In this document: in pieces, positions 6,122 to 57,599 of the stretch
How the letters are laid out: every line of letters begins with the position of its first letter
Position numbering within the stretch: the stretch's first letter is position 1
Assembly: GCA_964016885.1 (NCBI GenBank)
Contig: OZ024740.1
Span: 133,052,001-133,116,000 of the forward strand
Direction: 5' to 3'
DNA from: Eledone cirrhosa
Lineage: Eukaryota
DNA length: 64,000 nucleotides
Made by a program: the position numbers and the translations under genes
The notes under the pieces: model-generated
The model's input: the letters and a program-made list of their open reading frames with translations, nothing else
What the model was told of the DNA's origin: nothing
The model's database searches: none

Positions 6122-6129
6122 ATTATTAT

Positions 6130-6316
6130 GCGGTGGATTGGCAGTATCGGTAGAGGGTCGGATACCATGATTTCCAGCATAGTTACGTCCCTTTACGATC
6201 TGAGATCAAATCCCGCCGAGGTTGATGTTGCCTTTCATCCTTACGGGGTCGATAAAATAAAGTACCAGTAATGCACTGGTTTATTGCTGGCTTTGTGCCA
6301 AACGTAGACACAATTA
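6130..6316 (+). mobile_element. tRNA-derived SINE
   Basis: A-box-like tggcagtatcggt, B-box-like gagatcaaatcc, body gcctttcatccttacggggtcgataaaataaagtaccag, (ATT)n tail; at least 6 copies in the window. Confidence 0.85.
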
Positions 6317-6345
6317 TCATTATTATTATTATTATTGTTATTACT

Positions 6346-11005: not shown

Positions 11006-11038
11006 GTAAACCTTCCCTCTCTCTCTGAGCTTACCAAT

Positions 11039-14000
11039 ATGGCCATATTAAGAGTAGGAAGTTTAAATGTTCGCGGCCTGGTGTCACCCTGGAAGCAGGG
11101 TCGCCTGCTCAACGACCTCAGGTTGCTGGAAATGGATGGGATTGCCGTCAGCGAGACCAGAATTTCCGACACGTGCGCACTAGCCCCCATTTTCGACGAC
11201 TATCAGATCATCGCATCTGTTAGCAGACCGGGAATGGGAGGTGGGGTGGCAGTGCTGTTTAGGAAAGGACTGGATCTCGAGGTAAGGTCGATCTTCCGAG
11301 AACCGAACGGTAAGTGGTGGTCTTGGATGTGAGCAGTAGCGAAGGTGGTGCCTTTATACTGCTGGCCGTCTACGCCCCTACAGGGGACGGACGACCGGGC
11401 TTCTTTGGGCGCCTGGAGACCTTTCTGGGTACGTCTCGCCCTTTACTGTTAGCGGGGGAATGGAATGGCATCTCCGACGCACGCTGGGATTGTGTGGGAG
11501 TAGCCGATAGGAGCGGGGGGTGCAAAATCCTCAAGCACCTACTCAGCCAGTTCCAACTGTCTGACAGGTATCGACTAGATTCCCCCAATGTGCCAGTATG
11601 GACATCGACCAACCGAATGGGGTCATCTAGCTCGTATATAGACAGGATCTTCATTCGGAAAATAGATAGAAATTGTTTGGGCTGTCGGTTTACCTAGATA
11701 AAACGCGTAGGTTAGGACCGGGTTACTGGAAGCTGAACATGTCATTTCCGGCACGTAAGGCTTACAGGGACCGCAACAACAATTTAGTTAAGCAAAAGTT
11801 GATAGGGGGGATCATCAACAACAGAGTGTGGGGGGGCTCTCAAAAGAGAGATTAGAGTAACTTCGATAGAATTCAGGAAAGAACTAGCGTTAGAGAAAAA
11901 TAGAAAGGAGGGGGAGCTGGTAGATAAGTTAGACGAGGCTATTTGTAGTGGTATTGCAACTGACGTGCTAGTAGCGAGAATGGCATTAGACCATTTCTTC
12001 AATGCGAAATACGAAGATTCCATTGTCAGAGCTAAGGCGCGTATGCTGAGAAACGAGGGAACCAAAGCAGTTCGATGGGCCCGCGTGGCGGACGCGCAGC
12101 GTGGTAATAAAACCACAATTCGGTCTTTGGCGGACCGAGACGGACACGAGATAAGCGATTCCAAGCGGATGTGTGTGGTCTTTCGCCAACACTTTGCTCG
12201 GTTGTTCGGGGAAACTGGCGAGTTAGAGAGAGTAGCGGATTTCTTAACGGCTTGCCGCGCATCTCGACGGTCGACGCTGAGCGCTGCGAAAGGCCGATTA
12301 CTTCAGCTGAAATTCAGGACGCCCTTGTCGGCTGCATAATGCGCAAGTCACTCGGTTTGGATGGCCTGCCCTACGAGCTTTACGCCAATATGCCAGACTT
12401 GTTCTCCGAACTCCTCGAAGCACTTTACAGCAACTGGCAGCAGAATGGGAGTATTCCCAGTTCTGTGAGCAGGGGAGTGGTAACGCTGATAAGGAAAGAC
12501 GAGAACAAGAGGGATACATTAGACAACTTCAGGCCCATAACTCTGCTCAACACAGAGTTTAATTTAAAATTTCGGCCAAGGTGTTATCAAAGAGATTGGC
12601 GCTTGTCGTCGAGGATTTGGTTGGGGAGGCGCAAACTTGCGCAATCCCACCCAGGTCCATACACGACAATCTCCACCTCATGCGATACATCATAGAGAGG
12701 TTAGGGTGTAAACCTGGCTTCGGTGGGGCACTGATCAATTTAGATCAATCGAAAGCATTCGATAGTTTCGACCATTGGTATCTGGAGTTTGTCCTCAAAG
12801 CAGCTGGAATTTCAAAGCAGCTGCAATTTCACAGCGGCACATGCTCGGTGGTCAAGGTTAATGGCCACCTCTCGGAACCATTTCGGCTCTCCCGATCGGT
12901 TCGTAAAGGTGCCCTCTCTCTTCCCTTCTGTACGTATTGACTCTCGAGAATTTACTGCGGAAGCTGGAGCTGTTGCATGGCATCCCGCTCGAACCGGGAC
13001 GTGGAAAGGCGGTGTCGTCTTATGCGGACGACATCACCGTGATGATGTCGGACACCTCAGAAATCGAGGTGGTCGTCACCTTATTGAAGGAATATGAATG
13101 GTTCACAGGAGTCAAACTTAACCCGGAAAAGTCGGTGGGCTTGCAACTCGGCACCTGAAGAGGCAAGTCCTTGCCGTCCAACAGCGTCGTTAGGCATGGA
13201 CGGACGGACCGGTAAAGTTGCTAGGGGTTTGGTTCGGGCCAGACCTCCAGGGGGATAATAATTGGGACGTGGTAATGAGCAGAGTAGCCAGTCTCACCCA
13301 CAAATGGGCTAGGAGGAAGCTATCACTGAAAGGTCGCGCGGAGGTGGTAAATGCGTACATCGCGTCCGTCATCTACTACCGCCTGACCGCCGTGCCTTGC
13401 CCCGTCCGCGCCTCGTCAAGTTGGAACGGCTGCTCTTAAAATTCTTGTGGAGAGGACAAGTTCGGTTGGTGAGACTGTCCATCTGCTGCCAGCACCCTCT
13501 ACGCGGAGGGCTGGGCACGCCGTGGCTAATGATGCGTAGGCATGCGTTGAGGCTACGACATCTCCGGATATTCTGCCTCAACGGTGAACAGGTGTGGTCG
13601 CCGTTTATCAGACGGGCCTTTCCGCAGCTCATTTCTTTGACTGAGCTGCAATCCTGGGTCAAGAAGAGACCGAGACTGGGTGATTGGCACCTGGAATGCT
13701 ACCAGGCACTCACTGCCCTCTACCAAGCGGGCAATGCGATCAGTGGAACTTCCACTCTCGAGTTCTATAGAAGATTAGTAGTGGACAAGTGCGATGACGC
13801 ACTCGGAGAAGTTTGGGCCTCGTCGAAGTCGAACTGACCAGTCTGTACCGGAGGACTTCTGAGCCTGGGACGATGGACAATTTCCATAAATCCCTCGCTT
13901 GGCAGTGCTACCGGGGGGCACTGCCGGTTCGGGATAAACTCTACAGGCACGGAAGTGGTGTCAGACGGACCTGCCCAAGATGCGCACAGAAACGACGAAA

Positions 14001-14389
14001 CCGTTCTGCAGGCACTTGTCCAATGTCCGTGCATTACTGACTTGTGGAGTTATGTTGAACAGCTACTGTCGCGTTTGGAACGAATCCGGCTATCGGCCGA
14101 GTCCATAGTGAAGATCGATCTACCGCCTTCCTTAGCTCAGGAAGAGCAGTAAATTTTCCTCTCTCTGGTAGCAGATGCGAAAGAGGTTATATGGTGGACC
14201 AGGTTAAAAGGACTTAAGACAGACACTTTTCTCTTCGGCCAATCCCTCATCAACTTCTTCAAGTTTCACCTGGAAAGGAAGGCGAGTGTGGAGAGAGAAG
14301 TGCTGCCCCCCAGTATATTTGCTAAAAGGTGGGTGCATTTGGCGAGAATGGCTCGTGTGAATGAGCCTACTCTGACCATGCGCCTATAG
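11039..14389 (+). pseudogene. Tx1 ORF2 (AP endonuclease + reverse transcriptase + Cys-rich C-terminus), frameshifted
   Basis: GSLNVRGL, SETR, AVYAP, SYIDR, YWKLN, GLDGLPYELY, NFRPITLLN, LDQSKAFD, YADD, CPRC..ETVL. Confidence 0.9.
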
Positions 14390-14692: not shown

Positions 14693-14898
14693 GGTCTAAG
14701 CGGACGTATTTTGCTCGCTCACAGTAAGTCGCTTTCTTTGCCTGTTAAAATTATTTGTTGTTAAATATTTCTTGTTGTGTAAGTGATATAAGCCCTTAGA
14801 CTTTGCCCCGTGAAGAGGAAAGTATAATATTTGGGCCTTTTGGCCCAAATATTTGAACTTTTTTTACGTTAAAACATTTACGAAGAAAAAAAAATATG
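14693..14898 (+). mobile_element. Isolated Tx1-type 5'UTR ending at the presumptive ORF1 ATG
   Basis: Follows (ATT)n; hairpin aatatttgggcc-tttt-ggcccaaatatt like other Tx1 5'UTRs; ends aaaaaaaaatATG as at 17081. Confidence 0.6.
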
Positions 14899-16853
14899 TT
14901 TCTTTTAACTTTTTCCTGTCTACAAATCATAGGTTCATAGGTTTCCCACTATCATTGTTCAATTCATCTACCACTAAGTTTAGGATATCAACTAAATCTT
15001 GTCCTAGCCCGTCAGCATTCATCTCCTCATTGGCCGTATCTTTGTTCCAGGTATTATTTATTTCAGCATTCAGATCATTGTCTGCTTCGGATGCTTCCTC
15101 CGTTCTCCCAACCTCTTCACATTCATTTCCCATTGGCTCGTTTGCCTGGCATACTCCACTCTCCATTTCCAACCTAATCTCTCTGCTCAGTTCCTCCAGT
15201 TCCAGCTCGCTTATCCATCCATTAGTTCTTATTACCCGAGCCTGCCCGGCCAATTTTTGTTTATTTAATTTAAATAGACCAATCTCGTTCCAGATGTTAT
15301 GCATCCGTCTCCTATAGCCTTTTCCCTTGGGTTACTCTTTAGGTAACATTGCATAACAGTTCTATTCAATTCTTTCGTCCAGTTGGTTCTGGTCACTTTC
15401 CTTCTTCTTCTTCCTCCAACACCAGCAGTATTTAGATGACAGCCAAGTCCCTGTAACTGGGCCAATGAGCACCTGCTTGGTGAGAGTCTGTCACATAAGT
15501 TCCAGTCTCCACTTCAGCGTTATTCTAACTGTTTAGGTTCGACATTTAAACACTCATATCGAGGATTGGTGAATGTATGGTTACATAACCACCGATGATT
15601 TCATCACCCCCAGTGATTTGATCACCCCCGGTGATTTTAGCGAGGCACTATCACGCTGTAGACGAACATAAATAAATAAACAAATAAATAGATAAAAACT
15701 TTTAAAAATATACATAAGTTTCATTGTAATGTTTGAATGTCTGAGTTTGTTTTTGTGTTAGTATTTTGATTTTTTTTTTTTCCTTTAAGTTTTTCGTTTT
15801 TCAAGGCCAGTAGCATCGGTTACTAGTGTTATTGTTGCTACTGTGCTGTTTTGATTTTAGCTTCGTGGGAAGTAGGTATTGTTTCGTTCAAAACTTTTGA
15901 AATTTGTTTCGACTTGTTGCTTATCATTATTATTATTATATTGGAGGATTGGCAGTATTGGTAGAGGGTCGGACGCCATGCTTTGACGTTTAGAGTGACG
16001 GCCCTTGCCATTCTAAGTTCAAATCCCGCCGAGGTTAACTTTGCCTTTCATCCTTACGGGTTCGATAAAATAAAGTACCAGTAATGCACTGGATATTTGC
16101 TGGCCTTGTGCCTAACGTAGAAACAATTATTATTATTATATTATACGAGGTCCATAAAACAAAGTACCAGCAATGCTCTGGGCAATTGCTGCCCCTGCGC
16201 CAAAAAAGCAGAAACAATCATTATTATTATATTACAGTTTAGATTTGACATCTTTTAAACTAAACATTTTGAGAGAGTTTAGAGGTACAACAGCAATAAT
16301 GTTTTTGGTGTTGTTGTTGTTGCTGTTGACCCTGTCACCAAATCAGTCTATTTATATCTTTTGATACCTTCCTCGCTTCTATTCATGTTTAGTGGGACTA
16401 CTACCATCACTCTCTCTTAACAGGAGGTGGTGAGAGAATAGCGGCGGTAGCGATGATGATGCAGTGGTGGTGGTGATGTGATAGTAGTAGTGCAGTGAAG
16501 GTGTTTATCTAGCCGCTGGGTTTGGTTTGTTTGTTTGGCTGGCTAGATTTTTTTTCGTGGTAGTGGTGATGGTGATTGTGGTGGCTACGGTAGTGGTGTT
16601 GGTGGTGAAATTATTTGCCATTTTTCTTTTTTGATTATAACATTTCTGATCCAAAATTAAATATTAATTATTGGAGCCCTATGCCATAATGTGATGCGAT
16701 GTCACTTCCTGAGAGTTAAAATTGGTGTCTTATGTTCCATTTGTAATAAGAATTATTCTATCACAATTGTTTAAAATACGTAAAAATCAAAAACTTACGG
16801 GAGCGATTCAATAACAATCTATCCATCACGTGCGTGTCTTCCCATATCTTCCC
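14897..16853 (-). mobile_element. R4/Dong LINE 5' portion (5'UTR + ORF N-terminus)
   Basis: WTKELNRTVMQCYLKS..QARVIRTNGWISELE; colinear with 55475-57552; ends at (TTA)n. Confidence 0.85.
15943..16130 (+). mobile_element. tRNA-derived SINE inside the Dong 5' region (a partial 3' copy follows at ~16146-16218)
   Basis: Same consensus as 6130; flanked by (ATT)n. Confidence 0.85.
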
Positions 16854-17080
16854 TTATTATTATTATTATTATTATTATTATTGGCGTCTTACGTAGGAAA
16901 TCGTATCATCGTGAGCTCCGCCAAGGTTTGTAGTTTTCCTTTGTTTAAAATTGGCATTTATGGAAAATTATTATTGTTAACTGTATCTAAGTGCACATAC
17001 ATTGTTTTCCTAAAAGCACACTCAAAATTATTGGGGCCTTGAGACCAAAATTTAAACTTTTATAATTATCAAACAAAAAT

Positions 17081-32137: not shown

Positions 32138-32323
32138 CGGCGGTGGATTGGCAGTATCGGTAGAGGGTATGACGCCATACTTTGACGCATAGAGTTACGG
32201 CCCTTGCCATTCTGAGTTCAAATCCCGCCGAGGTTAACTTTGCCTTTCATCCTTACGGGGTCGATAAAATAAAGTACCAGTAATCCACTGGTAATTGCAG
32301 GCCTTGTTCCAAAGGTAGAAACA
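32138..32323 (+). mobile_element. tRNA-derived SINE with 14-bp TSD
   Basis: B box gagttcaaatcc; TSD attatgatatataa at 32124-32137 and 32324-32337. Confidence 0.9.
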
Positions 32324-32613
32324 ATTATGATATATAAATGTAATATATTTCTACAGCTCAAATTATCTGAAACTAAATCATTAAAAAAGTATTACTTATT
32401 ATGAATATATATTAAATTACCAACGAGTTATAATAAATGATAGCGTAATATATTTCATATATTTTAACAATTGCTTTTCTGCGAGAGTTTACAAGTATTT
32501 TGTCATAAAGAGCCCTAATATTCTATTCAATTTGAATTTCCACAACGCTCATTGGAAGCCAAATCAAAGAGATATCCTGTTAGTCTACTTAAGGAACACA
32601 TCGATATTAAACT

Positions 32614-36715: not shown

Positions 36716-37470
36716 CACAATCTATACGCGGATATTTTACGTCTTGATGTGGTAGCTAAGTATATGTTATGTTTATACCATTACTTATTTGTATAGGTAA
36801 GTATATATTACCTGTATGTTTTGTGAAGGTACGTTTACTTTCTCGTACGTATATTTGATTGTATATGTTATGGCGTATATTATATATATTCTGGTACATA
36901 TGCTTTTGGTTATGTGTATACGTGAGTTTTGCGACTGTGTGAGTATGCGGGTTCGTACGTATGTAGGGTGTGTGTATATGTGTACTTCGTGTTTTGGTTG
37001 ACGTATGTCTCCGAACATATGTGTATTTACAAGTAGGTATGTGTGTGCGCTTGTTATTACGTATTTATTTAATTATATACTTTTATTTAATTTTTTGTAT
37101 ACACGCACACACACACACATATTTATATGTGCGTGTATTTGTATACCTATGGTGAGTGTTTTCGCGTATGCTTGTGTATGTACGTATATGGATGCGTGTA
37201 TGTATTTATTTAATTTCAATTACCTCTGTATTTTATTTACTTTTTTCTTAACTCTGAAGCCGAGAATCATTCGGTTTCCTAGTTAGAATTTTAGTCTACG
37301 ACTTTGCGTGCAATTGTTCTCCACGCTCCACATAGGACGTATTATCTTCGTTTTTTTTTCGTTCATTGCCAGAGAATGTCTCTATGAACCACCTAATAGA
37401 ATATTAGTCTACGACTTATAAAAGTGGTTTTTGTCTTTGCGTGTAATTGTTTTTCACCGCTCCTAATAAT

Positions 37471-37620
37471 TGTTTCTACTTTTGGCACAAGACCAGCAAT
37501 TACCCAGTGCATTACTGGTACTTTATTTTATCGACCCCGTAAGGATGAAAGGTAAAGTTAACCTTGGCAGGATTTGAACTCAGAATGGCAAGGGCCTTAA
37601 CTCTATGCTGCAAAGCATAG
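37471..37620 (-). mobile_element. 5'-truncated SINE inserted in the Penelope 3' pLTR, 17-bp TSD
   Basis: TSD tcaccgctcctaataat at 37454-37470 and 37621-37637; empty site visible at 34233-34249. Confidence 0.92.
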
Positions 37621-38702: not shown

Positions 38703-38895
38703 CCAGGGGGCGGTGAATTGGCAGTATCATTAGAGTGTCAGACACCATGCTTTTCAGCATAGAGTTACGCCCCTTTATGGTCTGAGTTCAAATCCCGCCA
38801 AGGTTAACTTTGCCTTTCATCCTTACGGGGTCGATAAAATAAAGTACTATTAATGCACTGGGATAATTGATGGCCTTGTGCCAATAGTAGAAGCA
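38703..38895 (+). mobile_element. tRNA-derived SINE with 13-bp TSD
   Basis: TSD attattatcgtcc at 38690-38702 and 38896-38908. Confidence 0.9.
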
Positions 38896-40311
38896 ATTAT
38901 TATCGTCCTCTGAATGTTTTATTCATATTTATTGTATCATTTACCAGTGTATGGTAAACTTCTGTCACACTTAGTTTTGTGCCTCTGCTGGTATTTCCCC
39001 CCCCCCCCCCCCCTTCATTGAAATCAGAGATGGGTTTCTAGCATGGATATTACTATTTTGGCAGTTAAACATCAAATCTTCTTTTCTCATCTCCGGAATA
39101 ATGATACTTTATATGTATTTTATAAATATTTTCATGTTACTTCGTTTTCTGAATATTATTCACATGTTTCTTCACGTTAGATTACTTATCTATTAGTACG
39201 TCTTTCTAGAAATTCGCATTCTTCTACTATGATTGCCCCTAAAATGGTATTACACACATTCAAACAAAATGGAATGTTATAATGTCTATGATATAAGATG
39301 AAGCTACATAACGACAACACATATGAAAGCAATGGTATCAATCTCTATCATTCATAACAAATACTAATACATACAGAATGAAAACTGACGCAACTAGTTT
39401 AGAGGCATGAAAATGTAAAACATTAAAATAGTCAATGAGGGAATGAGTATAATCAGTTACTTAATAAACATTAATGTGTGATTGAAACATTAATGTGTGA
39501 TTGAGTTCATGCTAAATATATCCGAAGAAAACGCTATATATTAGGCCTGCACGAAATATGGGAAACAGAAGTCGCTCTACGTATTGGAGCTCTGCATTTG
39601 TTTGATGAACAAATGTTAGATAATATTTGAATGTAAGTAATCTGTGATCAAGTAACGAGGAGTGTATTCTGATTTTACTTCTAAAATTCATATTGAAATT
39701 AATCATCTGGTGTACTTAAAGTAAACCGAAAACCCTATATTTTAAAATCTATGTTTATTTAAAATATAATGTTACACAGTGTGCATAATCGCAATGCTAA
39801 GGCAGTATTGTACTTCTTGTATTTAGATAAGGAAACAAGGACAACATTCTCAACATTTTTTTACTGCAGGCAACCTCGCCCATCGTCGATAGCGATGAAA
39901 GGAATTGAGGATTCAATCGCAAAACTGTAGACCTGGTCAATATTTGTAACTGAATGAATTCTGCTAACCGCCCTCAAGCAAGTTGTAGGGTGCCGCAACA
40001 TGTGATCGAAAATATCTCCCACTAAGGAACTGACGCCGACTCACTAACAATTCCACCAATCAAACATGGTAGACTAGGTCTTTATTACATTTACAGCGAA
40101 AGGGTGAAAGGCAGATCGGAGGGATTTGAACATAAGGTGAACACCATAGAAAGAATACTTTCTCCAATGAATACTTTCTTCAATTCATTCTTTCTGTATC
40201 TTCAGACATATTTTATATATTTGTGTAACCCTATATATATCTCAACACACTTAGTATTGATGAACAGTAATTAGATTATGTGACTCCAATAACCGCCTCA
40301 AATTTAAATAA

Positions 40312-40446
40312 TTGTTTCTACTTTAGGCACAAGGCAAGCAATTATTCCAGTACATTACTGGTACTTTATTTTATCGACCCCGTAAGGATGAAAGGCAAAG
40401 TCAACCTCGGCGGGATTTGAACTCAGATCGTAAAGTGACGTAACTA
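40312..40446 (-). mobile_element. 5'-truncated SINE with ~11-12 bp TSD
   Basis: Reverse complement of the SINE consensus; atttaaataatt at 40302-40313 and 40446-40457. Confidence 0.85.
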
Positions 40447-46062: not shown

Positions 46063-49000
46063 GAACAACAACCACACCACCACCAGCATCACCCAAAACA
46101 CCAAAAACGCAAATACAACAAAACACACACACCCAACAGCAACAACAAGAAAACAGCAACAAAATCACCTCTCCCCCCAAAAGTACACATAAACATGGCA
46201 AATAAAGAACTCTTACAAAATATAAAGCAGCACATAGACATCACAGAAAATAATTACTACACCCCACCAACCCCAAGAACGCTCCCGACAAACATCATTG
46301 AAATCAAATAGAACATTACAAATTTTTAAAACAAAAATTCCCTAACGCAGTTGGAGACTTAACAGGGCCGGTTATCAAGAAGTTATACACCGACATCCTC
46401 TTGGAAACACCCATGACCAGCCAAAGGGACGGTTCTACTGTCGCTTCACCACACGATCAAGGTCAGTGATCCTTTCTCACTTACCCTGTTTCTCATCCAA
46501 TATGGACGTACTTAAAATAGGTAGTATAAATGTACGTGGCCGGGGGGTCGTTTGGAAGCAGGGTCACCTGATCAACGACCTCAGGTCACTAAACATAGAT
46601 GTGGTGGCCATCAGTGAGACCAGAATCTCTGAAGCCTTCGCAACGATCTTCAATGGCTACGATGTATACGCATCACCCAGCCCTCCAGGATCGGGGGGAG
46701 GGGTTGCCGGGCCTTTTCGGTGGTGCTGGACGTCACCGGCAGCAAAAGCAATGATATCAGGCTAGTAGCCGTCTACGCCCCGACAGGGGCAGGACGGCCA
46801 GACGTCTAGAGACTTTTCTTGTAACGTCCCGCTCTTTAGTGTTAGTGGGCGACTGGAACGATATCTTAGATACACGCTGGGATTATGTGGGGCTAGTAGA
46901 CAGGACAGGAAGGTGTAAAAGCCCCAACAACCTGCTGAGACGTTTTGAACTGTCTGACAGCTATAGACTGGATTATCCGAATGTGCCAATGTGGACATGG
47001 ACAAACCCCACCGGGTCATCCAGATCGTATTTAGATAGGGTATTCTCTGTAGGGAAACAGATAAGGCTAGTGTAGGTTATCCATAATTTAAAATAGTCGA
47101 CTACACGGAACACAAATTTGTGATCTTTGAAGTTGACTTAGATAGACTCCATAGGCAAGGGCCTGGCTACTGGAAGCTTAACGCGTCGTTCCCGGCGCGC
47201 AAAGCTTGAGAGACCGGATTAGCGTATTAGTTAAGCCAGCGTTGTCGGGTGCGATCGTCAACAACAGGTACTGGTTTACCCTGAAAAGGGCTATTAGAGT
47301 AGAATCGATAAGGTTTAGCAAAGGAGGTGTGATAGAAGAAAATAGAGTAGAGGGAGAGTTAGTTAGAAAGCTAGAAGAGGCGTTTAGGACAGGCATCGCA
47401 AACGACGTGCTTGCGGCGAGATTGGCACTCGAACGATTCTTCAAAGCAAAGCATGAAGGCTACATTGTCAGAGCTAGAACGCGTGCTCTAAGACACGAGG
47501 GGACGAAAGCCGTTCAATGGGCCCGGGTGTTGGAGGCGCGACGTGGCAACAGGTCCAAAATTCGGTCTTTGCCTGATGAAAACGGGCGCATGTTGCTCGA
47601 ACCTGAGCAGATGTGTGCGGCTTTTCAACAGCACTTTCCTCAATTGTTCGGGAGCGGCGGCGCGCCGAATCGGAGTATGGACTTCGGTGCATACCTCGAC
47701 GGACTGCCGCGGCTCTCGATGACCGCAGCGCAGTGCTATGAAAAGCAGATAACAGCAGGTGAAATACGGGACGCGATGTCTGACTGCATGAGGGGTTTAT
47801 CGCCAGGCTTGGATGGCCTGCCCTACGAGCTTTATGCGTATATGCCAGACTTTTTCGGCGACCTCTTTGCAGATGTCTACTGCAACTGACAGTAGAACGG
47901 GAGCATTCCCAGTTTTGTGAGCCGGGGAGCGGTGGCGCTGCTGAGAAAAGACCCGAACAAGGGGGACGTTATAGACAACTTCAGGCCCATAACTCTGCTA
48001 AACGCAGAGTTTAAGATTTTGGCCAAGATGTTAGCAAAGAGATTGGCGCTTGTCGTCGGTGATCTGGTGGGAGAGGCGCAAACATGCGTCATCCCGGACA
48101 GATGCATCCACGACAACCTCCATCTCATGTGATACATCATAGAGAGGGTGATTAAGGAACCTGGCACGGGTAGGGCCCTGCTCAACTTGGATCAATCTAA
48201 AGCATTTGATAGGGTCGGCCATCGGTATTTGGCTGCGGTTGTCGAGGCGACCGGCTTCGGGTCCGTTTTTATGGGCTGGATCGCTGCGATGCACAGCGAC
48301 ATCTGCTCGATTGTGAGGGTGAATGGTCACCTGTCGCAGCAATTCAGCATCATGCGCTCGGTCCACCAGGGTTGACACCTTTCGTCCCTCTTTTACGTAC
48401 TGGCCCTATAGACACAAATTGGAGACGCGAACTGGGATGCGAGAGATCCGTGTCAGTTTACGCCAACGACGTCACCGTGGTGGTGTCGAGCACCAAACAC
48501 GTCCAGATCCTCGGCACCGCTCACAAAGAATACGAAGCGGTGACAAGACAAAGGTAAACCAGGAAAATTCTGTGGGCTTGCAACTCGGCACCTGGAGAGG
48601 CAAGCCCATGTCATCCGACAGCGTCGTGGGGCGCTAATGGACGGACCGGTTAAATTGCTCGGTGTCTGGTTCGGTCCAGACCTCCAGAGGGAGAACAAAT
48701 ATAGCGAGGTGACGAGCAGAGTGGCCTCTCTGACCCAGAAATGGGCCGAGAGGAAGCTGTCCATGAACGGCCGGGCGGGGTCGTGAATGCGTACATAGCG
48801 TCCGTCATCTGCTACCGCCTAACCGTCGTACCTTGCCCGGCCCAACTCTGACCAAAATGGAGCGCCTTCTCTTCCGCTTTTTGTGGAAGGGACGTGCTCC
48901 CATGGTCAGATGATCCATTTGCTGTCAACACGCGTTGCGTGGAGGACTTGGCATGCCGTGGCTGATGATGCGCAAACATGCGCTGAGGCTGTGATCTCTG

Positions 49001-50139
49001 GTGCCTCCTTAACGGTGAACAGGTGTGGTCGCCGTTTGCCAGACGCGCTTTTCCCCAGCTCGTCTCTTTGACGGAGCTGCAGTCCTGGATAAGGAAAAGA
49101 CCGAGGGATAGCGCTTGGAAGCTGGAATGTCTCCAAGCGCTCACCTCCCTCTACTGGCTGGGCACTATGATCGGTGGAACATCCACCTCGGCGTTCTATA
49201 GAGATCTAGTGGAGGGAAAGAGCGACGACGTTCTCGGGGAGACCCTGGGCGTCTAAGACGATCAGCTGTTCGCTCTCTCCAAGAGAACTTTGAGACCGGT
49301 GACTATGGACAACCTCCAGATATGCCTGGCCTGGCAGTGCTACCGGAAAGCGTTGCCGGTTCGGGATATGATCTACAGGCACAGAGATACTGGCAGCCGA
49401 GCCCGTCCGAGAAGCGCTCAGGGCGACGAAACCGGCCTGCACGCACTCGTTCAGTTCCTAACGATTGATGACTTGTGGAGCTATGTATAACAGTTGCTGT
49501 GCGTGTAGGACGGATACGGTTATCGACTGAGTCCATTGTGCAGATAGCCCCGCCATCGTCCTTTGAAGAGGAGGAAGGGAAGGCAGTTTTCATCTGCCTG
49601 GTGGCCATGGCGAAAGAGATTGTGTGGTGGACAAGGTTGAAAGGGTTAAAGACAGATACTTTCCTCTCCGGCGAATCCCTGATTAACTTTTTCAAGTTTC
49701 ACTTGAAGAGGAAAATCAGGATGGAGACGCAAGTGCCGTCTTCTAGCAACTGTTTTGAAAGGTGCGTGAATATAGCGAGAATGATACGAGTGAACGGGTC
49801 CGCTCTGAATATACGCTTGTAGTTTGAGAAATTGGAACAAATTGAGAGAGGGCGCTTGCTCTAGTGGGCAGGGTGGCCGTGGTCTTTTGTGTGGTTTTCG
49901 CCACGAGTAACCCTCGGAGGTTTCCCACCTATTGGGGATTTTTTTATTGTTTGAATTTTCAGTTTTATTGTTTATATATATATATGTTTCTATGTCTTTT
50001 TTTCTTTTCTTATATTAATAATAAAATCTTTACACGCACAAAACCCACATCGTACCGACCTGTGCCGTCTGTAATGTTTTTCTTTGTGTCAGTCCTTGTG
50101 GCCAATAAAGAAATCATTATTATTATTATTATTATTATT
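46063..50139 (+). mobile_element. Tx1/L1-group LINE copy C, 5'-truncated, decayed
   Basis: ORF1 tail to 46469, ORF2 46502-49822 (GSINVRG, SETR, GDWN, SPGLDGLPYELY, LDQSKAFDRV, YAND), distinct 3'UTR, (ATT)n at 50116-50139. Confidence 0.9.
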
Positions 50140-50142
50140 GTT

Positions 50143-52812
50143 CTTTGAGTCTCAGACATTGATGTTATTCAACTTGAAAGTTTGTTGAAATGAATATCAA
50201 GGCACTACCTGCAGCCTCAGATATTTAGGACGTATCGGAGGGTTCTTGCTGACTAATTTTCTTGACCAATTTTCTTTAACCATGCTTGGAAACCCTTTGA
50301 GATAGTACCTAGTGCGCCTATGACAATCGGGACCACTTTGACTTCATGGCAGTTCCAAATCCTTTTTACATCCCACTTAAGTCCTGGTATCGGTTAATTT
50401 TCTCCCTCTCCCTCTCTTGCACTCTCGTGTCGAATGGGTAGGTTACATCCACAATCAGGCACGAACTTTTTTCCTTGTGCAAAACCACCAGGTCAGGTCT
50501 ATTTTGTTCCAGTTTCTCGTCTGTCTGTATCCTAAAATCCCACAGCACCTTCACCTGATCGTTTTCTATCACCGACTCTGGCTTATGCTTATACCACTTC
50601 TCAGAATGTGGTAAATTGTTTACTTTGCATAGGTGCCAGTGGATCACCCTTCCCATCACAACATGTCTCCAGCCTTTATAGTGAGTCTGGGCTAGGTGTT
50701 TACACTCGGATACAATGTGAGCCAATGTCTTCTCTCAATGTTTCAGCCACTTCGTTTTGAGAGCCTGCTCTTGCCCATCCATTAGCATTCCTTCTGTAGC
50801 TTTTTTAAGGTCTCCTCTTTTCAATCAGTTCGATGTCTGTGGATCTCTAAATTCAGCTTTCTCAAAGAGGTACTATGAAGGAATTTTTCATGAAAGTTGC
50901 TCTTTCTCCTTGTTGTAATTTCCTCTTTGGACATCCACTGGTCTATTGTCCTCTCCTTCAGTACAATTCTGATCATAGGCTCCCTACTATCAGTCACGTA
51001 TTTGTGTAGGTTGTTTTTGTCCATCTGAACACAGTCCTCTATGCTGATAAGACCTCTTCCACCTTCAGATCTCCTTAAGTAGAGTATATCGACATCACTC
51101 CTCTTGTGGAACATGTTGTAGATAGTCAATAGCTTCCTAGTCTTCCTATCCATTTCTTTTTGTTCAGCACCATTCCATCTAAGAATTCCCGCATTGTACC
51201 TAATAATAGACACAGCTTGGGAATTCACTGCACTTATGACATTCCTACTATTCAGATGTGATTTTAATACGCTCCTAATGTACTCAGATCTTATCAATTC
51301 CTTCATGTTTTTGTTCTTGATGTCATCAGCCTCCAGAACACCCAAATAATTGTATCCTTCTTCAGTGTCAATTTCCTTTATCATCTCACCTGTTTGTACC
51401 TGGATTCCGTTACTTCTACAGAAGGACTCCACACTTCATCAGAAGGACTCCACACTTACTAATATTAAATTGCATACATATATCATTGCTGAAAATACGG
51501 ACAGTGTCAACTAGCACATCCAACTTTTTCTCACTCTTCCCAAAGAGTTTAAGATCATCCATGAAGAGGAGGTGAGATGATGGTAAGCTCTCCCTTTCCC
51601 AACTTGTATCCTGCTCTCACCTTAGCAGTATAATCGTCAGGGGTATAAGGACAAACAACAGAGGGGACCAACTATCTCCCTGGAAGATACCTCTCTTGAT
51701 CTTCACGCTTCCCGAGGATTCTCCAGCTGAAGTTAACTCTGTTTTCCAGGACTTCATACTTTTGCTCAACAACTGTCTGATGTTATCTGCCACCTTGGTT
51801 ATCCAAGAATATGGTATCATGTCGAATGCCATTTTGTAGTCTATCCATCCCATGGCAAGACCAGTGTGTCTCCTCTTGCAATTCCTCATTATCATCTTAT
51901 CAATAAGTAACTGGTCCTTTGTACCACAGGACTTCTTTCGGCATCCTTTCTGTTCGTCCGGTAACAAGTTGTTTATGTGGAGGTGATGGTAGATTTCTTC
52001 AGACACAATGCTTGTTAACAGTTTCCACATTACGGACAGACATGTGATATGTCTATAGTTGGTAACATCATTACCCTTGATTCGGTCTGTCATTACCAGA
52101 ACTGTGGTACATCTTGTCAACCAATCTGGTACCTCACTTGACATCAAGCAGTCATTGAACATGGTTGTCAGTTTCGGGTGGAGGGATGTTATATTTTTTA
52201 ATCCAATACCCCTGCACACCACCTGGGCCTGGTGATTTCCAGTTGGTTAGTTTTTTGGTCTGCCCTTTAAGAGTTTCAACTGTGATACTCAAATCAGTTT
52301 GTTGGTGTTATTCTTCACTAATCTCCTTTTGTACTGTCTCACTCCACACTGCTTGATCATTATGTTCAACATCCTGCTCCCGTATTCCTCTCCAGAATGT
52401 CTTAGACTGTTTCACCTCAGGGATCAAGTGGCTGACTCTTTGTTTCCCTTTAAGCTGCCCAAACAACATCTTCTGGTTGTTTTCAAACAAGCGGGTTTGT
52501 CTATACTTACTGACTCTGCCCTTTTATTGCCTAGTCTTTTCACTCTTTGCTACAATGCGTTGCTTCAGTTCCTCTATAATAATATTTAGCTTTTTCCTCC
52601 TAGTTTTCTACTTTACTTTCAGTCTATTTATAGTGTCTATGTATTTTAGTGTCACATTCAGTAGGGACTCAAGCTTTCCAATCTGATTTCTCATTTCCCT
52701 GAATTGACAATTTAGTCGTTTCTTCCACCAAAAGTCTAATCTTTCTTGTTTGTTGTTTCCTATCGTTTTTATGCCAAGTAATTTCCTCACCGCATTTGCT
52801 GTTACTTTGAGG
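50143..52812 (-). mobile_element. R4/Dong LINE, 5'-truncated, with internal deletions
   Basis: Same 3' terminus and RT/RLE motifs as 6346-8597; bounded by (ATT)n. Confidence 0.9.
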
Positions 52813-52833
52813 ATTATTATTAATATTATTATT

Positions 52834-55800
52834 CTTTGAGTCTCAGTCATTGATGTTAGTTAACTGTAAAGTTTGTCGAAATGAATATCAAGCCACTACC
52901 TGCAGCCTAAGATATTCAGGACGTATAGGAGCGTTCTTGCCGTTCCCAGCAAGCATGCCTTTTGAAGAGTTCCAAAAAGCGTGAAGGGGCCAAATTTCTT
53001 TAACCATCCCTGGAGACTTTTTGAGATAGTACCTAGTGCGCCTATGACAATCGGGACCACTTTGACTTCATTGCAGTTCCAAATCCTTTTTACCTCCCAC
53101 TTTAAGTCCTGGTATCGGTTAATTTTGTCCCTCTCCTTCTCTTGCACTCTCGTGTCGAATGGGCAGGCCACATCCACAATCAGACACGCTCTTTTTTCTT
53201 TGTCCACAACCACCAGGTCAGGTCTATTGTGTTCCAGTTTCTTTTCGGTCTGTATCCTAAAATCCCACAGCACCTTCACCTGATCGTTCTCCATCACCGC
53301 CTCTGGCCTATGCTCATACCATTTCTCAGAATGTTGTAAATTGTTTACTTTGCATAGGTGCCAGTGGATCACCCTGCCCATCACATCATGTCTCCAGCCC
53401 TTATAATGAGTCTGGGCTAGGTGTTTACACTCGGATACAATGTGAGCCACAGTCTCCTCTCTCTCTCCACAGATCCTGCACAGTGGGCTAGCCTCCTCCT
53501 TGTAAATATGGTGTTTCAACCCCTTCGTTTTGAGGGCCTGCTCTTGCGCAGCCATTAACATTCCTTCTGTAGCCTTTTTAAGGTGTCCTCTTTTCAACCA
53601 GTTCCATGTCTGTGGATCTCTGAATTCAGTTTTCTCAAAGAAGGTACTATGAAGGGATTTTTCCTGAAGGCTGCTCTTTCTCCTTGATGTTATTTCCTCC
53701 TTGGACATCCACTGGTCTATTGTCCTCTCCTTCGGTACAGTTCTGAGCATTGGCTCCTTACTGTAAGTCATGTATTTGTGTAGGTTGTTTTTCTCCATCT
53801 GAACAAAGTCCTCTATGCTGATAAGATCTCTTCCACCTTCAGATCTCCTTAAGTAGAGTCTATCGACATCAATCCTCTTGTGGAACATGTTGTAGATAGT
53901 CAATAGCTTCCTAGTCTTCCTATCCATTTCTTTTTGTTCAGCAACATTTCATCTCAGAATTCCCGCACTGTACCTAATAATATACACAGCTCGGGAATTT
54001 ACTGCACTTATGGCATTCCTACTGTTCAGATGTGACTTTAATACGCTCCCTACTCTCCGAATATATTTAGTTCTTATCAATTCCTTCATGTTTTTGTTCT
54101 TGATGTCATCAACCTCCTGAACACCCAAATACTTGTATCCTTCTTTAGTGTCAATTTCCTTTATCATCTCACCTGTTGGTACATGGATTCCGTTACTTCT
54201 ACTCAATTTAAACCTCTTCATCACAAGGACTCCACACTTACTAATACTAAATTGCATACATATATCATTGCTGAAAATACGGACAGTGTCAACTAGCACA
54301 TCCAACTTTTTCTCACTCTTCCCAAAGAGTTTAAGATCATCCATGAAGAGGAGGTGAGATGATGTTATCTGCCACCTTGAGGATCTCCAGGCTTTTGGTG
54401 ATCCAAGAATGAGGCACCATGTCAAATGCCTTTTTGTAGTCTATCCATCCCATGGCAAGACCAGTGTGTCTCCTCTTGCAATTCCTCATTACCATCTTAT
54501 CAATAAGTAACTGATCCTTTGTACCACGGGACTTCTTTCGGCATCCTTTCTGTTTGTCCGGTAACAAGTTGTTTGTGTGGAGGTGATGGTAGATCTCCTC
54601 AGACATAATGCTTGTCAACAGTTTCCACATTACGGACAGACATGTGATAGGTCTATAGTTGGTAACATCATTACCCTTGATTCGGTCTTTCATTATCAGA
54701 ACTGTGGTACCTTTTGTCAACCACTCTGGTACCTCACCTGACATCAAGCAGTCATTGAACATGGTTGTCAGTTTCGGGTGGAGGGATGTTATATTTTTAA
54801 TCCAATACCCCTGCACACCATCTGGTCCTGGTGATTTCCAGTTGGTTAGTTTTTTTGGCCTGCCCCTTAAGAGTTTCAACTGTGATACTCAAACCAGTTT
54901 GTTGGTGTGCCTGTTCACTAACCTCTGTACTGTCTCAATCAACACTGCCTGGTCATTATATTTAACATCCTGCTCCCATATTCCTCTCCAGAATGTTTTA
55001 GTTTGTTCCGCCTCAGGGATCAAGTCGTTGACTCTTTCTTTCCCTTCAAGCTGCCGAAACAACATCTTCTGGTTGTTGTCAAACATGCGGTTCTGTCTAT
55101 ACTGACTGACTCTGTTCTCGTATCGCCTGATTTTTGCACTCTTTGCTACAATGCGGTTGCTTCAGTTCCTCTATGATAATATTTAGCTTTTTCCTCCTAG
55201 TTTTTTACTTTAATTCCAGTCTATTTTTAGTGTCTATGTTTTTTAGTGTCCCATTCAGTAGGGACTCAAGCTTTCCAATGTCATTTCTCATTTCCCTGAT
55301 TTGACCACTCAGTCGTTTTTTCAACCAAGGCTCTGATCTTTCTTGTTTGTTGTTTCTTCTGTCTTTAAACCAAGTAATTTCCTCACCGTATTTGCTGTTG
55401 CTTTGAGGATATTGTTGCACTGGTGAAGGCTCCTCGCCTCAAGGTATGGGATGACTTTGTTTACCTTAGCTGTTGTTTCTTTTAACTTTTTCCTGTCTAC
55501 AAATATTAGGTTCATAGGTTTCCCACTATCATTGTTCAATTCATCTACCACTAAGTTTAGGATATCAACCAAATCTTGTCTTAGCCCGTCAGCATTCATC
55601 TCATCAGTGGCCGTATCTCTGCTCCAGGTATTATTTATTTCAGCATTCAGATCATTGTCTGCTTCGGATGGTTCCTCCGTTCTCTCGACCTCTTCACCTT
55701 CATTTCCCACTGGCTCGTTTGCCTGGCATACTCCACTCTCCATGTCCAACCTAATCTCTCAGCTCAGTTCCTTCAGTTCCAGCTCGCTTATCCACCCATT

Positions 55801-57552
55801 AGTTCTTATTACCCGAGCCTGCCCGGCCACTTTTTGTTCTTCTAATTTAAATAGACCAATCTCGTTCCAGATGTTATGCGTCCGTTTCCTATAGCCTTTC
55901 TCCTTTGGGTTACTCTTCAGGTAACATTGCATAACAGTTCTATTCAATTCTTTCGTCCAGTTGGTTCTGGTCCCTTTCCTTCTTCTTCTTCCTCCGACAC
56001 CAGCAATTTTTGGTTGACAGCCAGGTCCCTGCTACTGAGCCAGGGAGCACCTGTTGGGTGAGAGTCTGTCACATGACATTCTAGTCTCCACTTCACCGTT
56101 ATTCGAACTGTTTAGGTTCGACGTTTAAACACTCTTATCGAGGATTGGCGAATGTATGGTTACATAACCACCGGTGATTTCGTCACTCCCGGTGATTTTT
56201 GTGTGGCATTATCACGCTGTAGACGAACATAAATAAACAAACAAACAGGCAAAAAAAAACCCAGAAATGAATAAGAATAAGTTTCATTGTAATGTATTAT
56301 TTGAATGTCTGACTTAGTTTTTCCCTTCCATTCTCTGTCCGTCTGTTTGTTCTTCTCTTCATTTTTCTTTTCTTTACGTTTTTCGTTGTTGCTGTGCTGC
56401 TTTGATTGTGATTTTTGTTTTTTGATTTTAACCGGGTCATCAATTCAGTATATTTTTATATTTTGATGCCTTCCTCTTTTAGTGGGGACACTACGATGTA
56501 GCAGGAGGTAGTGGGAGAGAATAGCGGCGGTAGTGATAATGAGGCAGTGGTGGTGGTGGTGGTTCTGTGCTAGTAGTACCTAGCAGGAGGTAGTGGGAGA
56601 GAATAGCGGTGGTAGCGATAATGAGGCAGTGGTGGTGGTGATGTGATCGTAGTACTGTAGTGATGGTGTTGAAGTTGAAGTAGAAATAGAGTTTGAGGCA
56701 ACTTGACCGGAGTTTTTAGCATGGTGGTGTTGGTGGTGAAATTATCTTTAGCTATTAAGCTATTTAATCATTTTGCCATTTTCCTCCCTTTCCACTCCAA
56801 CATTCCTGATCCAAAATTATATATTAATATTGTTTATTAATATTGTCTAGTGATACCGCCACCGTCCCCTTTCGTAAGTTAACAGATGGTAATGGGGGAA
56901 TAGCGGTGGTAGCAATGAAGGAGTGGTGGCGGCGGTGATAGGATAGTGGTAGCAATGATGGATGGAGTGATGGCGGCGGTGACTATAGTGATGGCGTTGT
57001 CGTTACTGAGTTTTGTTGAATAGACTGTAGTTGTTTGATCGTTTAACCGGCGTATCTATGTGGTTAGTCGCGTATGTTTAATATATGTGTTGACATATTT
57101 CTTTAATATTGGAATTAAACATTTTGTGAAAACTTGAGACAATAATAATAGTAATTATTATTATTATGCTGGGATTGGTGGTGAAATTGCCGTTATCTGG
57201 CTGTTGTATTTAGTGTACACAGAGGGGGTGATGGGATAGGTGGTGCATCTAGTTTGTGGTGTTGGTGAAATTGCTGTTATTTGGCTGTTCTATATAGTGT
57301 AGACAGAAGGGTTTTCTTCCATTTATAACCATTTCCTTTTTTGAATATAAAATGTATAATACAAAATTAAATATTTGAGTGATATAACAGAATATTATGG
57401 ATCCGAATTTTTCTGATGGTTGAGTCTGGTGCTTTATGCATCATTTGTACTAAGAATTGTTATTTCACAATTGATTTAAATATGTTAAAAATCAAAAACT
57501 TACGGGAGCGATTTCATAACCTTCTATCCACCATGTGCGTCTTCTTCCCTGA
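52834..57552 (-). mobile_element. R4/Dong LINE, full length, decayed
   Basis: 5'UTR, N-terminal WTKELN.., RT, CRIC..HIVSEC, RHD, RPDLVVVD RLE; ~200 nt deletion at ~54360; (ATT)n at both ends. Confidence 0.92.

Positions 57553-57599
<47 letters not shown>

Follow-up and report, generated by a model that had tools for sequence, protein, structure and literature searches.

In Eledone cirrhosa, a Dong-type long interspersed element (LINE) that targets TAA repeats appears to have a long, promoter-bearing 5' leader with a functional splice donor, from which splicing would occur occasionally, as in human L1. This reading, in place of a regulated intron, is held with moderate confidence and is drawn from genomic sequence. 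Two copies of the element (copy 1 and copy 2) lie on the minus strand of the window, the whole stretch of 64,000 nucleotides analysed here (assembly GCA_964016885.1, contig OZ024740.1, positions 133,052,001 to 133,116,000). Introns are expected to disappear from LINEs, which multiply through RNA copies, therefore splice signals near the 5' end of a LINE need explaining. An earlier note on this DNA had interpreted the signals as a retained spliceosomal intron. This proposal is upheld in part: the donor is likely to be functional, as an exact GT..AG excision from it has arisen twice, but a long regulated intron is less likely, as its predicted junction was found in none of the genomic copies. 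All copies found contain the 1.1-1.3 kb 'intron', which is better explained as promoter-bearing leader than as a regulated intron.

Deletions at the probable splice donor

The element starts directly behind (TAA)n with GGGAAGA..GCTCCC|GTAAGT, the donor lying ~45 nt into the sequence. Two families, A (that of the window) and B, have this 5' end in common. A 17-mer from the sequence preceding the donor (exon 1) was followed by GT in 2024 copies across the source genome (3.0 Gb) and by other bases in six. One of these six had a 1-nt deletion; the remaining five, all from family B, had large deletions commencing at the base after ..GCTCCC and were divided into three classes.

The first class consists of L085 and L086, which lie on separate contigs and within distinct TAA contexts. 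Both lack exactly GTAAGT...AAAAAAG, a segment of 168 nt with GT..AG ends, and many unspliced relatives match them at 98-99% identity in the flanks that were searched. At 13 of 16 columns informative for subfamily, L085 and L086 carry different bases, each agreeing with another unspliced subfamily, and each is nearer to unspliced copies (97.4% and 97.5% respectively) than to the other (95.5%). The same exact excision is thus found on two subfamily backgrounds and has arisen at least twice. Both copies are full-length and colinear to the 3' end, decayed and bounded by different flanks in (TAA)n, and these class 1 copies are single elements without visible progeny. By their sequence they have the features of spliced retrocopies comparable to the spliced integrated retrotransposed elements (SpIREs) of L1, in family B only and not in family A.

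In the second class (L080 and L081, two adjacent copies) the deletion ends 5 nt earlier, in AA rather than AG, and the junction is either non-canonical or derived from a variant source. The third class is represented by an old copy, L084, in which exon 1 of the older type present in the window is joined to a family-B leader 216 nt before the ATG. The L084 junction has no clean AG of its own and is ambiguous.

A control site in exon 1, which is also followed by GT, was broken in 1 of 1180 matches (a 1-nt deletion) and yielded no large deletions. An additional control site gave 70 matches that were confounded by subfamily variants; the 20 that were read comprised 19 colinear variants and one deletion of 8-9 nt. 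Another control pattern fitted only 47 copies of the older subfamily and was uninformative. The donor is deemed to work because the GT..AG event is base-exact and recurrent, not on the strength of bare counts. These data suggest that it is likely a working 5' splice site which is used now and then, and that the spliced RNAs can be copied back into the genome. The acceptor documented by these copies is the proximal one, in family B only. The proximal motif, ..AAAAAAG|AAAATGG, is also found in both window copies, where its last intron base would be at 16626 and 57336, and most copies have it in each of the four groups sampled.

Splice-like sites in the two window copies

In copy 1 the donor is CGCTCCC|GTAAGT, with the first intron base (G) at 16798 on the minus strand, and the acceptor-like site upstream of the open reading frame (ORF) is ...GTTCGTCTACAG|CGTGAT (also read as ...tatgttcgtctacag), with the final G at 15656. 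The proposed intron is therefore 1143 nt. The matching sites in copy 2 are at 57503 and 56217, giving 1287 nt. Direct reading of both copies reproduced the sites, coordinates and lengths of the earlier note exactly. The features are as follows, all on the minus strand.

16799..16853, minus: copy 1 'exon 1', 55 nt, from the element 5' end (gggaag...) to ..atcgctccc; the same 5' end is found behind (TAA)n in other copies
16793..16798, minus: copy 1 GTAAGT splice-donor motif
16626..16798, minus: copy 1 counterpart of the short (168-174 nt) GT..AG segment, ending ..tcaaaaaag|aaaaatgg; the homologous segment is excised in four family-B copies
15656..16798, minus: copy 1 proposed intron, 1143 nt, most likely the bulk of the 5' leader; no intronless copy found
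15656..15700, minus: copy 1 T-rich tract and ..gttcgtctacag acceptor-like site; a conserved island between older and young subfamilies
57504..57549, minus: copy 2 'exon 1', 46 nt
57498..57503, minus: copy 2 GTAAGT donor motif
57336..57503, minus: copy 2 counterpart of the short GT..AG segment, 168 nt, ending ..ttcaaaaaag|gaaatgg
56217..57503, minus: copy 2 proposed intron, 1287 nt
15932..16144, minus: dispersed repeat resembling a short interspersed element (SINE) inside the copy 1 leader; five other copies in the window, 84-93% identity

The proposed long segment is bounded by GT and AG, its donor matches the consensus and its AG follows a pyrimidine tract, and by sequence it is intron-like in all of these respects. 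When copies 1 and 2 were aligned, homology was restricted to the first ~160 nt of the stretch, a few repeat blocks, the last ~100 nt and the ORF downstream. Copy 2 has a duplicated block of ~60-90 nt (56499-56558 and 56581-56670) and copy 1 has the SINE-like insertion, so that the interior divergence previously described (indels, a tandem duplication and a SINE insertion between alignable ends) holds. The six copies of the SINE-like repeat in the window are at 15932-16144, 6122-6332, 32142-32335, 37464-37618, 38717-38903 and 40307-40427.

Two other proposals for the 5' end were discarded. A hepatitis delta virus-like ribozyme or other known RNA was rejected, as comparison of the 5'-end region (15300-17000) with Rfam gave no matches at E values up to 1. 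An exon-1 ATG which joins the ORF in frame after splicing was also rejected, because the leader joined in silico runs into a stop and exon 1 of copy 1 has no ATG.

Conservation of both sites and the search for copies without the proposed intron

GTAAGT was observed 32 times on the two strands of the window, against 32.7 expected from shuffled sequence; at a density of approximately one per 4 kb per strand, a single occurrence in a 1.1-kb leader is unremarkable. The hexamer alone is not above chance, and it is its conservation among genomic copies that, on this sequence comparison, lifts the donor above it.

An initial sample comprised 31 sequences close to the older family-A subfamily of the window (30 loci, one of which is copy 1, plus copy 2). 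The donor GT was retained in 30 of the 31. Both sites fell inside the fetched flank in 25, spaced by 712-1509 nt, and all 25 retained the acceptor AG. Six loci showed no acceptor within 1.5 kb: four of them (L063, L064, L065 and L068) regain family-A homology farther on, in L066 stacked 3' fragments of the same family follow, and for L067 no more homology was seen within 7 kb. In a wider sample of four groups GTAAGT was intact in 47 of 53 copies and was the majority state in every group.

Young family-A copies with an intact frame of 1141 amino acids were also compared (n = 20). Eight reach exon 1, and these hold both GTAAGT and ..GTTCGTATACAG|CGTGG, 870-911 nt apart. The other 12 are 5'-truncated at scattered points in the leader, at positions 87-866 of a 1100-nt reference (the L043 leader and ORF start), and leader sequence upstream of the acceptor is retained in all 20. 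Both motifs are consequently conserved in other full-length Dong copies, young copies with intact ORFs included, as the earlier interpretation had anticipated. The presence of the sites in active-looking master copies, together with truncations inside the stretch, indicates that the template RNA contained it.

The junction expected after removal of the long segment, ..GCTCCC|CGTG.., was sought with a 19-mer widened to every subfamily seen, and there were no matches genome-wide with 0 or 1 mismatch. The unspliced exon 1-donor 19-mer gave 1994 matches. Spliced genomic copies, which the earlier note had proposed to count, therefore number zero, against 2024 unspliced. The accompanying suggestion that unspliced RNA is what is retrotransposed agrees with all copies found, since they derive from RNA that kept the stretch, but it is not the whole account, as spliced RNAs of family B were evidently copied back too. 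Contigs from sequencing runs of unrecorded kind, aligned with the young family-A and family-B leaders, contained no joint at the proposed intron. One contig from run X1 (depth 107; kind unrecorded) skips the 168-nt GT..AG segment, but as this form also exists as genomic DNA, these contigs carry no weight either way as to expression or splicing.

Two further features of the 5' end were noted. At the 5' junctions of L054, L072 and L080-L084 the (TAA)n target is separated from the GGGAAGAAGA start of the element by stretches of (GAA)n, which possibly reflect slippage or untemplated addition during 5' end joining. In addition, AGACG within GGGAAGAAGACGCAC in young exon 1 sequences (L043 1355-1398 and similar) resembles the start of RGACGTGY, the downstream promoter element quoted for Drosophila LINE and Penelope internal promoters in the available text of PMC2377424; it would lie at the usual distance for this element only if transcription began in the upstream TAA repeat.

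A leader module shared by two families

Family B was found via a divergent fragment adjacent to one copy, and many of its copies have an intact ORF of 1216 amino acids, the product of which is 36% identical to that of family A over the full length. Of ten copies fetched, five were full-length. Family B begins GGGAAGAAGACGCACGAGG..AAATTGCTCCC|GTAAGTTTTTTGA.. behind (TAA)n, that is, with the same 5' end and donor as family A. Its 1078-nt leader matches copy 2 at positions 1-348 (86%), 371-456 (87%) and 542-624 (75%), with no match beyond. Homology of family B (L069-L078) to window positions 56900-57549 and to L043 stops in the repeat-rich middle of the leader, and no acceptor of the family-A type was found in the family-B leader. 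Family B has instead its own pyrimidine tract and AG ~230 nt before the ATG; among the 30 loci read, most have TTTCATTCTTAAG, three have TTTCTTTCTCAG and single loci have other forms.

The front module (exon 1, donor and ~600 nt of 'intron') has, on the evidence of these alignments, either moved between the families or persisted while the ORFs diverged, and the pattern suggests a swap of leader or promoter between LINE families A and B. That ~600 nt are common to families with 36% identical proteins points to a promoter or leader function and not to a disposable intron. Replacement of the 5' untranslated region (UTR) in L1 is an example of the behaviour expected of an internal promoter. The shared module is likely to be such a promoter, a role that we infer.

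A young family-A element with an intact 1141-amino-acid frame, L138 (G000 C2:146869700-146879600), lies a few hundred nt inside a family-B leader, at approximately locus position 500. Its target may have been a TAA-like tract of that leader.

Interpretation of the leader and alternative explanations

In the explanation favoured here, the shared module would act as an internal promoter, and the donor would be kept because it lies in the promoter region or because binding of U1 small nuclear ribonucleoprotein to it aids full-length transcription. Splicing would be a minor side reaction, with the recopied products dead ends, as are the SpIREs of human L1. Use in RNA of the strong acceptor-like site upstream of the ORF is conceivable.

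Several observations weigh against this explanation. As bare counts, large deletions at the donor (5/2030) are not significantly more frequent than at the control site (0/1180). The distal site, GTTCGTnTACAG|CGTG, forms a conserved island amid more variable flanks when 23 older-subfamily copies are compared with 20 young family-A copies, and it is a good consensus acceptor with a T-rich tract and CAG. Family B has its own ORF-proximal pyrimidine tract and AG, and in L084 the sequence joined to exon 1 begins 13 nt beyond this tract and AG, which are of good quality. Penelope elements keep their intron in spite of mostly spliced transcripts, so that a scarcity of spliced copies is no proof of infrequent splicing. 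That the shared module acts as a promoter is, moreover, itself a deduction from sequence.

With respect to the distal site, the tract upstream stays T-rich despite a different sequence, while downstream the first ~70 nt are poorly conserved and the last ~110 nt before the ATG strongly conserved. This pattern favours some function at the distal acceptor, for which splicing is one candidate. Removal of the proposed intron would reduce the upstream ATGs from 12-13 to 5-6 and leave a leader of 172 nt, as calculated for eight family-A copies. The argument that splicing would remove many upstream ATGs is consequently correct as to the fall, but with 5-6 remaining it is a weak rationale.

A short 5' intron like that of Penelope is a possible but unlikely alternative. 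The 168-174 nt GT..AG segment, beginning ~45 nt from the 5' end, would be needed for export or translation, and copies that lose it would be at a disadvantage. The exact 168-nt excision on two independent occasions, the donor and proximal ..AAAAAAG|AAAATGG as majority state in four groups, and spliced copies that are single, decayed and without visible progeny are all consistent with it, as is a position resembling that of the 75-bp Penelope intron, which in the accessible part of PMC2377424 is placed 46 bp after the start site and inside the promoter region. However, the acceptor is weak, being AAG behind a run of A, the spliced copies are confined to family B (four copies, none in family A), and the conserved island at the distal acceptor would be left unexplained.

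The model of the earlier note, in which the whole 0.9-1.3 kb is a regulated intron, spliced RNA is translated and unspliced, promoter-carrying RNA is the template, looks rather improbable. It accounts for the perfect GTAAGT donor and strong distal acceptor kept in both older and young family-A subfamilies, for an interior of highly variable length (712-1509 nt in 25 copies) and for the ORF-proximal tract and AG that family B has of its own; the exact excisions show that the donor is usable, and Penelope offers a precedent, as the majority of its transcripts are spliced and yet the intron persists in the genome (PMC2377424, in the portion available). Against it, the predicted junction occurs in no copy as compared with 2024 unspliced, and spliced RNAs of the sister family were evidently recopied, so spliced forms are not barred as templates. 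Five upstream ATGs would remain after splicing, and the retention of ~600 nt as a module across families with 36% identical proteins would be odd for disposable sequence.

A 5' intron module truly under selection is also doubtful on the present sequence evidence, though conceivable. Here a donor 45 nt from the start would be common to the two families and paired in each with its own acceptor ahead of the ORF; the promoter would lie inside the intron, only unspliced RNA would found active copies, and spliced RNA would be exported and translated. If true, this would be the first LINE counterpart of intron retention in Penelope.

That the GT and AG are fortuitous, conserved by descent in a young family, and the donor deletions ordinary is very improbable: GTAAGT does occur at the frequency expected in the window (32 versus 32.7), most copies are young and would share it by descent, the large-deletion count is not significant alone against one control site and the L080/L081 and L084 classes, two out of three, lack a clean AG end, but the same base-exact GT..AG deletion occurs in copies of two subfamilies, which differ at 13 of the 16 informative columns, all three classes begin at the base right after ..GCTCCC, and the donor hexamer is the majority state even in groups in which the middle of exon 1 has diverged.

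Identity of the element and its copies in the window

The identification of the element as a Dong-type LINE with a restriction-like endonuclease, inserted in (TAA)n, was borne out by its reverse transcriptase (RT), its nuclease motifs and the flanking (TAA)n. In a profile search the ORF pieces of copy 2 matched RVT_1. Intact copies of both families have one long open frame; in intact family-A relatives this single ORF encodes 1130 amino acids (Pfam RVT_1, E 4.5e-22), and the 1216-amino-acid product of family B gave E 1.1e-29 with the same domain. C..C..H..C and RPD..D..K nuclease motifs are C-terminal in translations of both families and are aligned between the two, while zf-RVT was a weak Pfam match only. 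The closest solved structures are R2 proteins (E 2e-29), far ahead of L1 ORF2p (1e-12). Most of the copies that were read had (TAA)n immediately on their 5' side, and it was also present right at the 3' end.

A single-ORF RT, a CCHC motif and restriction-like nuclease without an N-terminal apurinic endonuclease (APE), and a (TAA)n target fit probable membership of the Dong/R4 clade, as judged by domains, motifs and target. A Penelope-like identity was rejected, as the nuclease motifs and best solved relatives are of the R2 type and not GIY-YIG; the likeness lies in the position of the intron-like segment only.

Copy 1 is the 5' part of an element only, whereas copy 2 is full length but decayed. 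Their remaining features are given below.

16854..16880, minus: (TAA)n target repeat immediately 5' of copy 1, read directly
15513..15655, minus: copy 1 leader from the acceptor-like site to the ORF start position, which is GTG here and ATG in intact copies
14897..15512, minus: remains of the N-terminal part of the copy 1 ORF, decayed; 14897 is the limit of homology to copy 2
57552..57599, minus: (TAA)16 target repeat 5' of copy 2
52896..56091, minus: copy 2 ORF region with RT, CCHC and PD..D..K nuclease, interrupted by stops and frameshifts
52813..52895, minus: copy 2 3' UTR (~60 nt) and TAA-type tail
50115..52810, minus: further copy of the same family, 5'-truncated inside the ORF, within the TAA tail of copy 2 and with its own (TAA)n tail

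Window positions 50115-57599 hence hold a full-length Dong element followed head-to-tail by a 5'-truncated copy in its TAA tail, and such stacking is what an element that seeks TAA should produce. The plus strand carries decayed copies of a different LINE at 11006-14389 and 48823-49822, both with open-frame pieces. This pair is ~75% alike over 700 nt (13576-14280 versus 49007-49713), the first being ~500 nt beyond 14897.

Comparison with known systems

Dong elements are described as targeting (TAA)n in insects, molluscs and cnidarians (PMC7998251, available part), and among the LINEs of Octopus vulgaris Dong-R4 is reported as a major group with recent activity, with 5 families and 1129 recent insertions according to the accessible sections of PMC13282606 and PMC9115989. 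The present element agrees with this group in its single ORF with RT and C-terminal restriction-like nuclease, in its (TAA)n target and in being very abundant and recently active, as in octopus. The portions of the Dong/R4 literature that were accessible made no mention of leader splice sites, an intron or a leader shared between families. A brain transcript named 'RTE-2_OV' in PMC9115989 is described there, in the part available, as having a zinc finger at the N-terminus, an endonuclease at the C-terminus and a microsatellite immediately downstream of the ORF; on this description, its organization resembles that of LINEs with a restriction-like endonuclease, such as Dong, more than that of RTE.

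The Penelope intron of Drosophila virilis was reportedly studied by Arkhipova et al. in 2003. In the available part of PMC2377424, this intron measures 75 bp, is separated from the start site by 46 bp and falls within the promoter region; most transcripts are spliced, as detected by reverse transcription PCR, while genomic copies keep the intron, and its deletion abolished the reporter protein and left the RNA unchanged. The element studied here likewise has an intron-like segment ~45 nt from the 5' end in a presumed internal promoter, and its genomic copies overwhelmingly keep the segment. Penelope, however, belongs to a separate class with a GIY-YIG nuclease and a telomerase-like RT, whereas the present element is a LINE, and the segment proposed here is 1.1-1.3 kb rather than 75 bp and is a candidate intron recognized in genomic copies.

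The closest parallel is with human L1, in which a conserved donor in the 5' UTR (G98U99, position 98) lies inside a RUNX3 site, acceptors are located in the 5' UTR and ORF1, and SpIREs, which are promoter-defective dead ends, account for 131 of 6,609 full-length elements (PMC5860796, available part). As in L1, the leader has a conserved donor near the 5' end with acceptors further down the 5' UTR, and unspliced copies prevail. In a few full-length copies exactly the donor-to-acceptor segment is missing; these have normal insertion hallmarks and are apparent dead ends, as L1 SpIREs are. The two systems differ in type, L1 being an APE-type element and the present one a Dong-type LINE with one ORF, a restriction-like nuclease at the C-terminus and (TAA)n as its target, and in the share of spliced copies, which is lower here (4-5 versus 2024, against 131/6,609 in L1). 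In L1 the spliced RNA, the promoter activity and the reason for donor retention were tested, whereas here they are predicted from genomic copies. Unlike in L1, the donor-bearing module is common to two families with 36% identical proteins, which bears on the movement of leader and promoter modules between LINE families. With ~2,000 copies that have full 5' ends and many intact ORFs, the element is a tractable system in which to ask whether such donors serve transcription, translation or nothing. The few exact spliced copies, apparently without progeny, constitute a natural record of donor use and would extend the SpIRE picture of L1 to a restriction-like-endonuclease LINE of an invertebrate.

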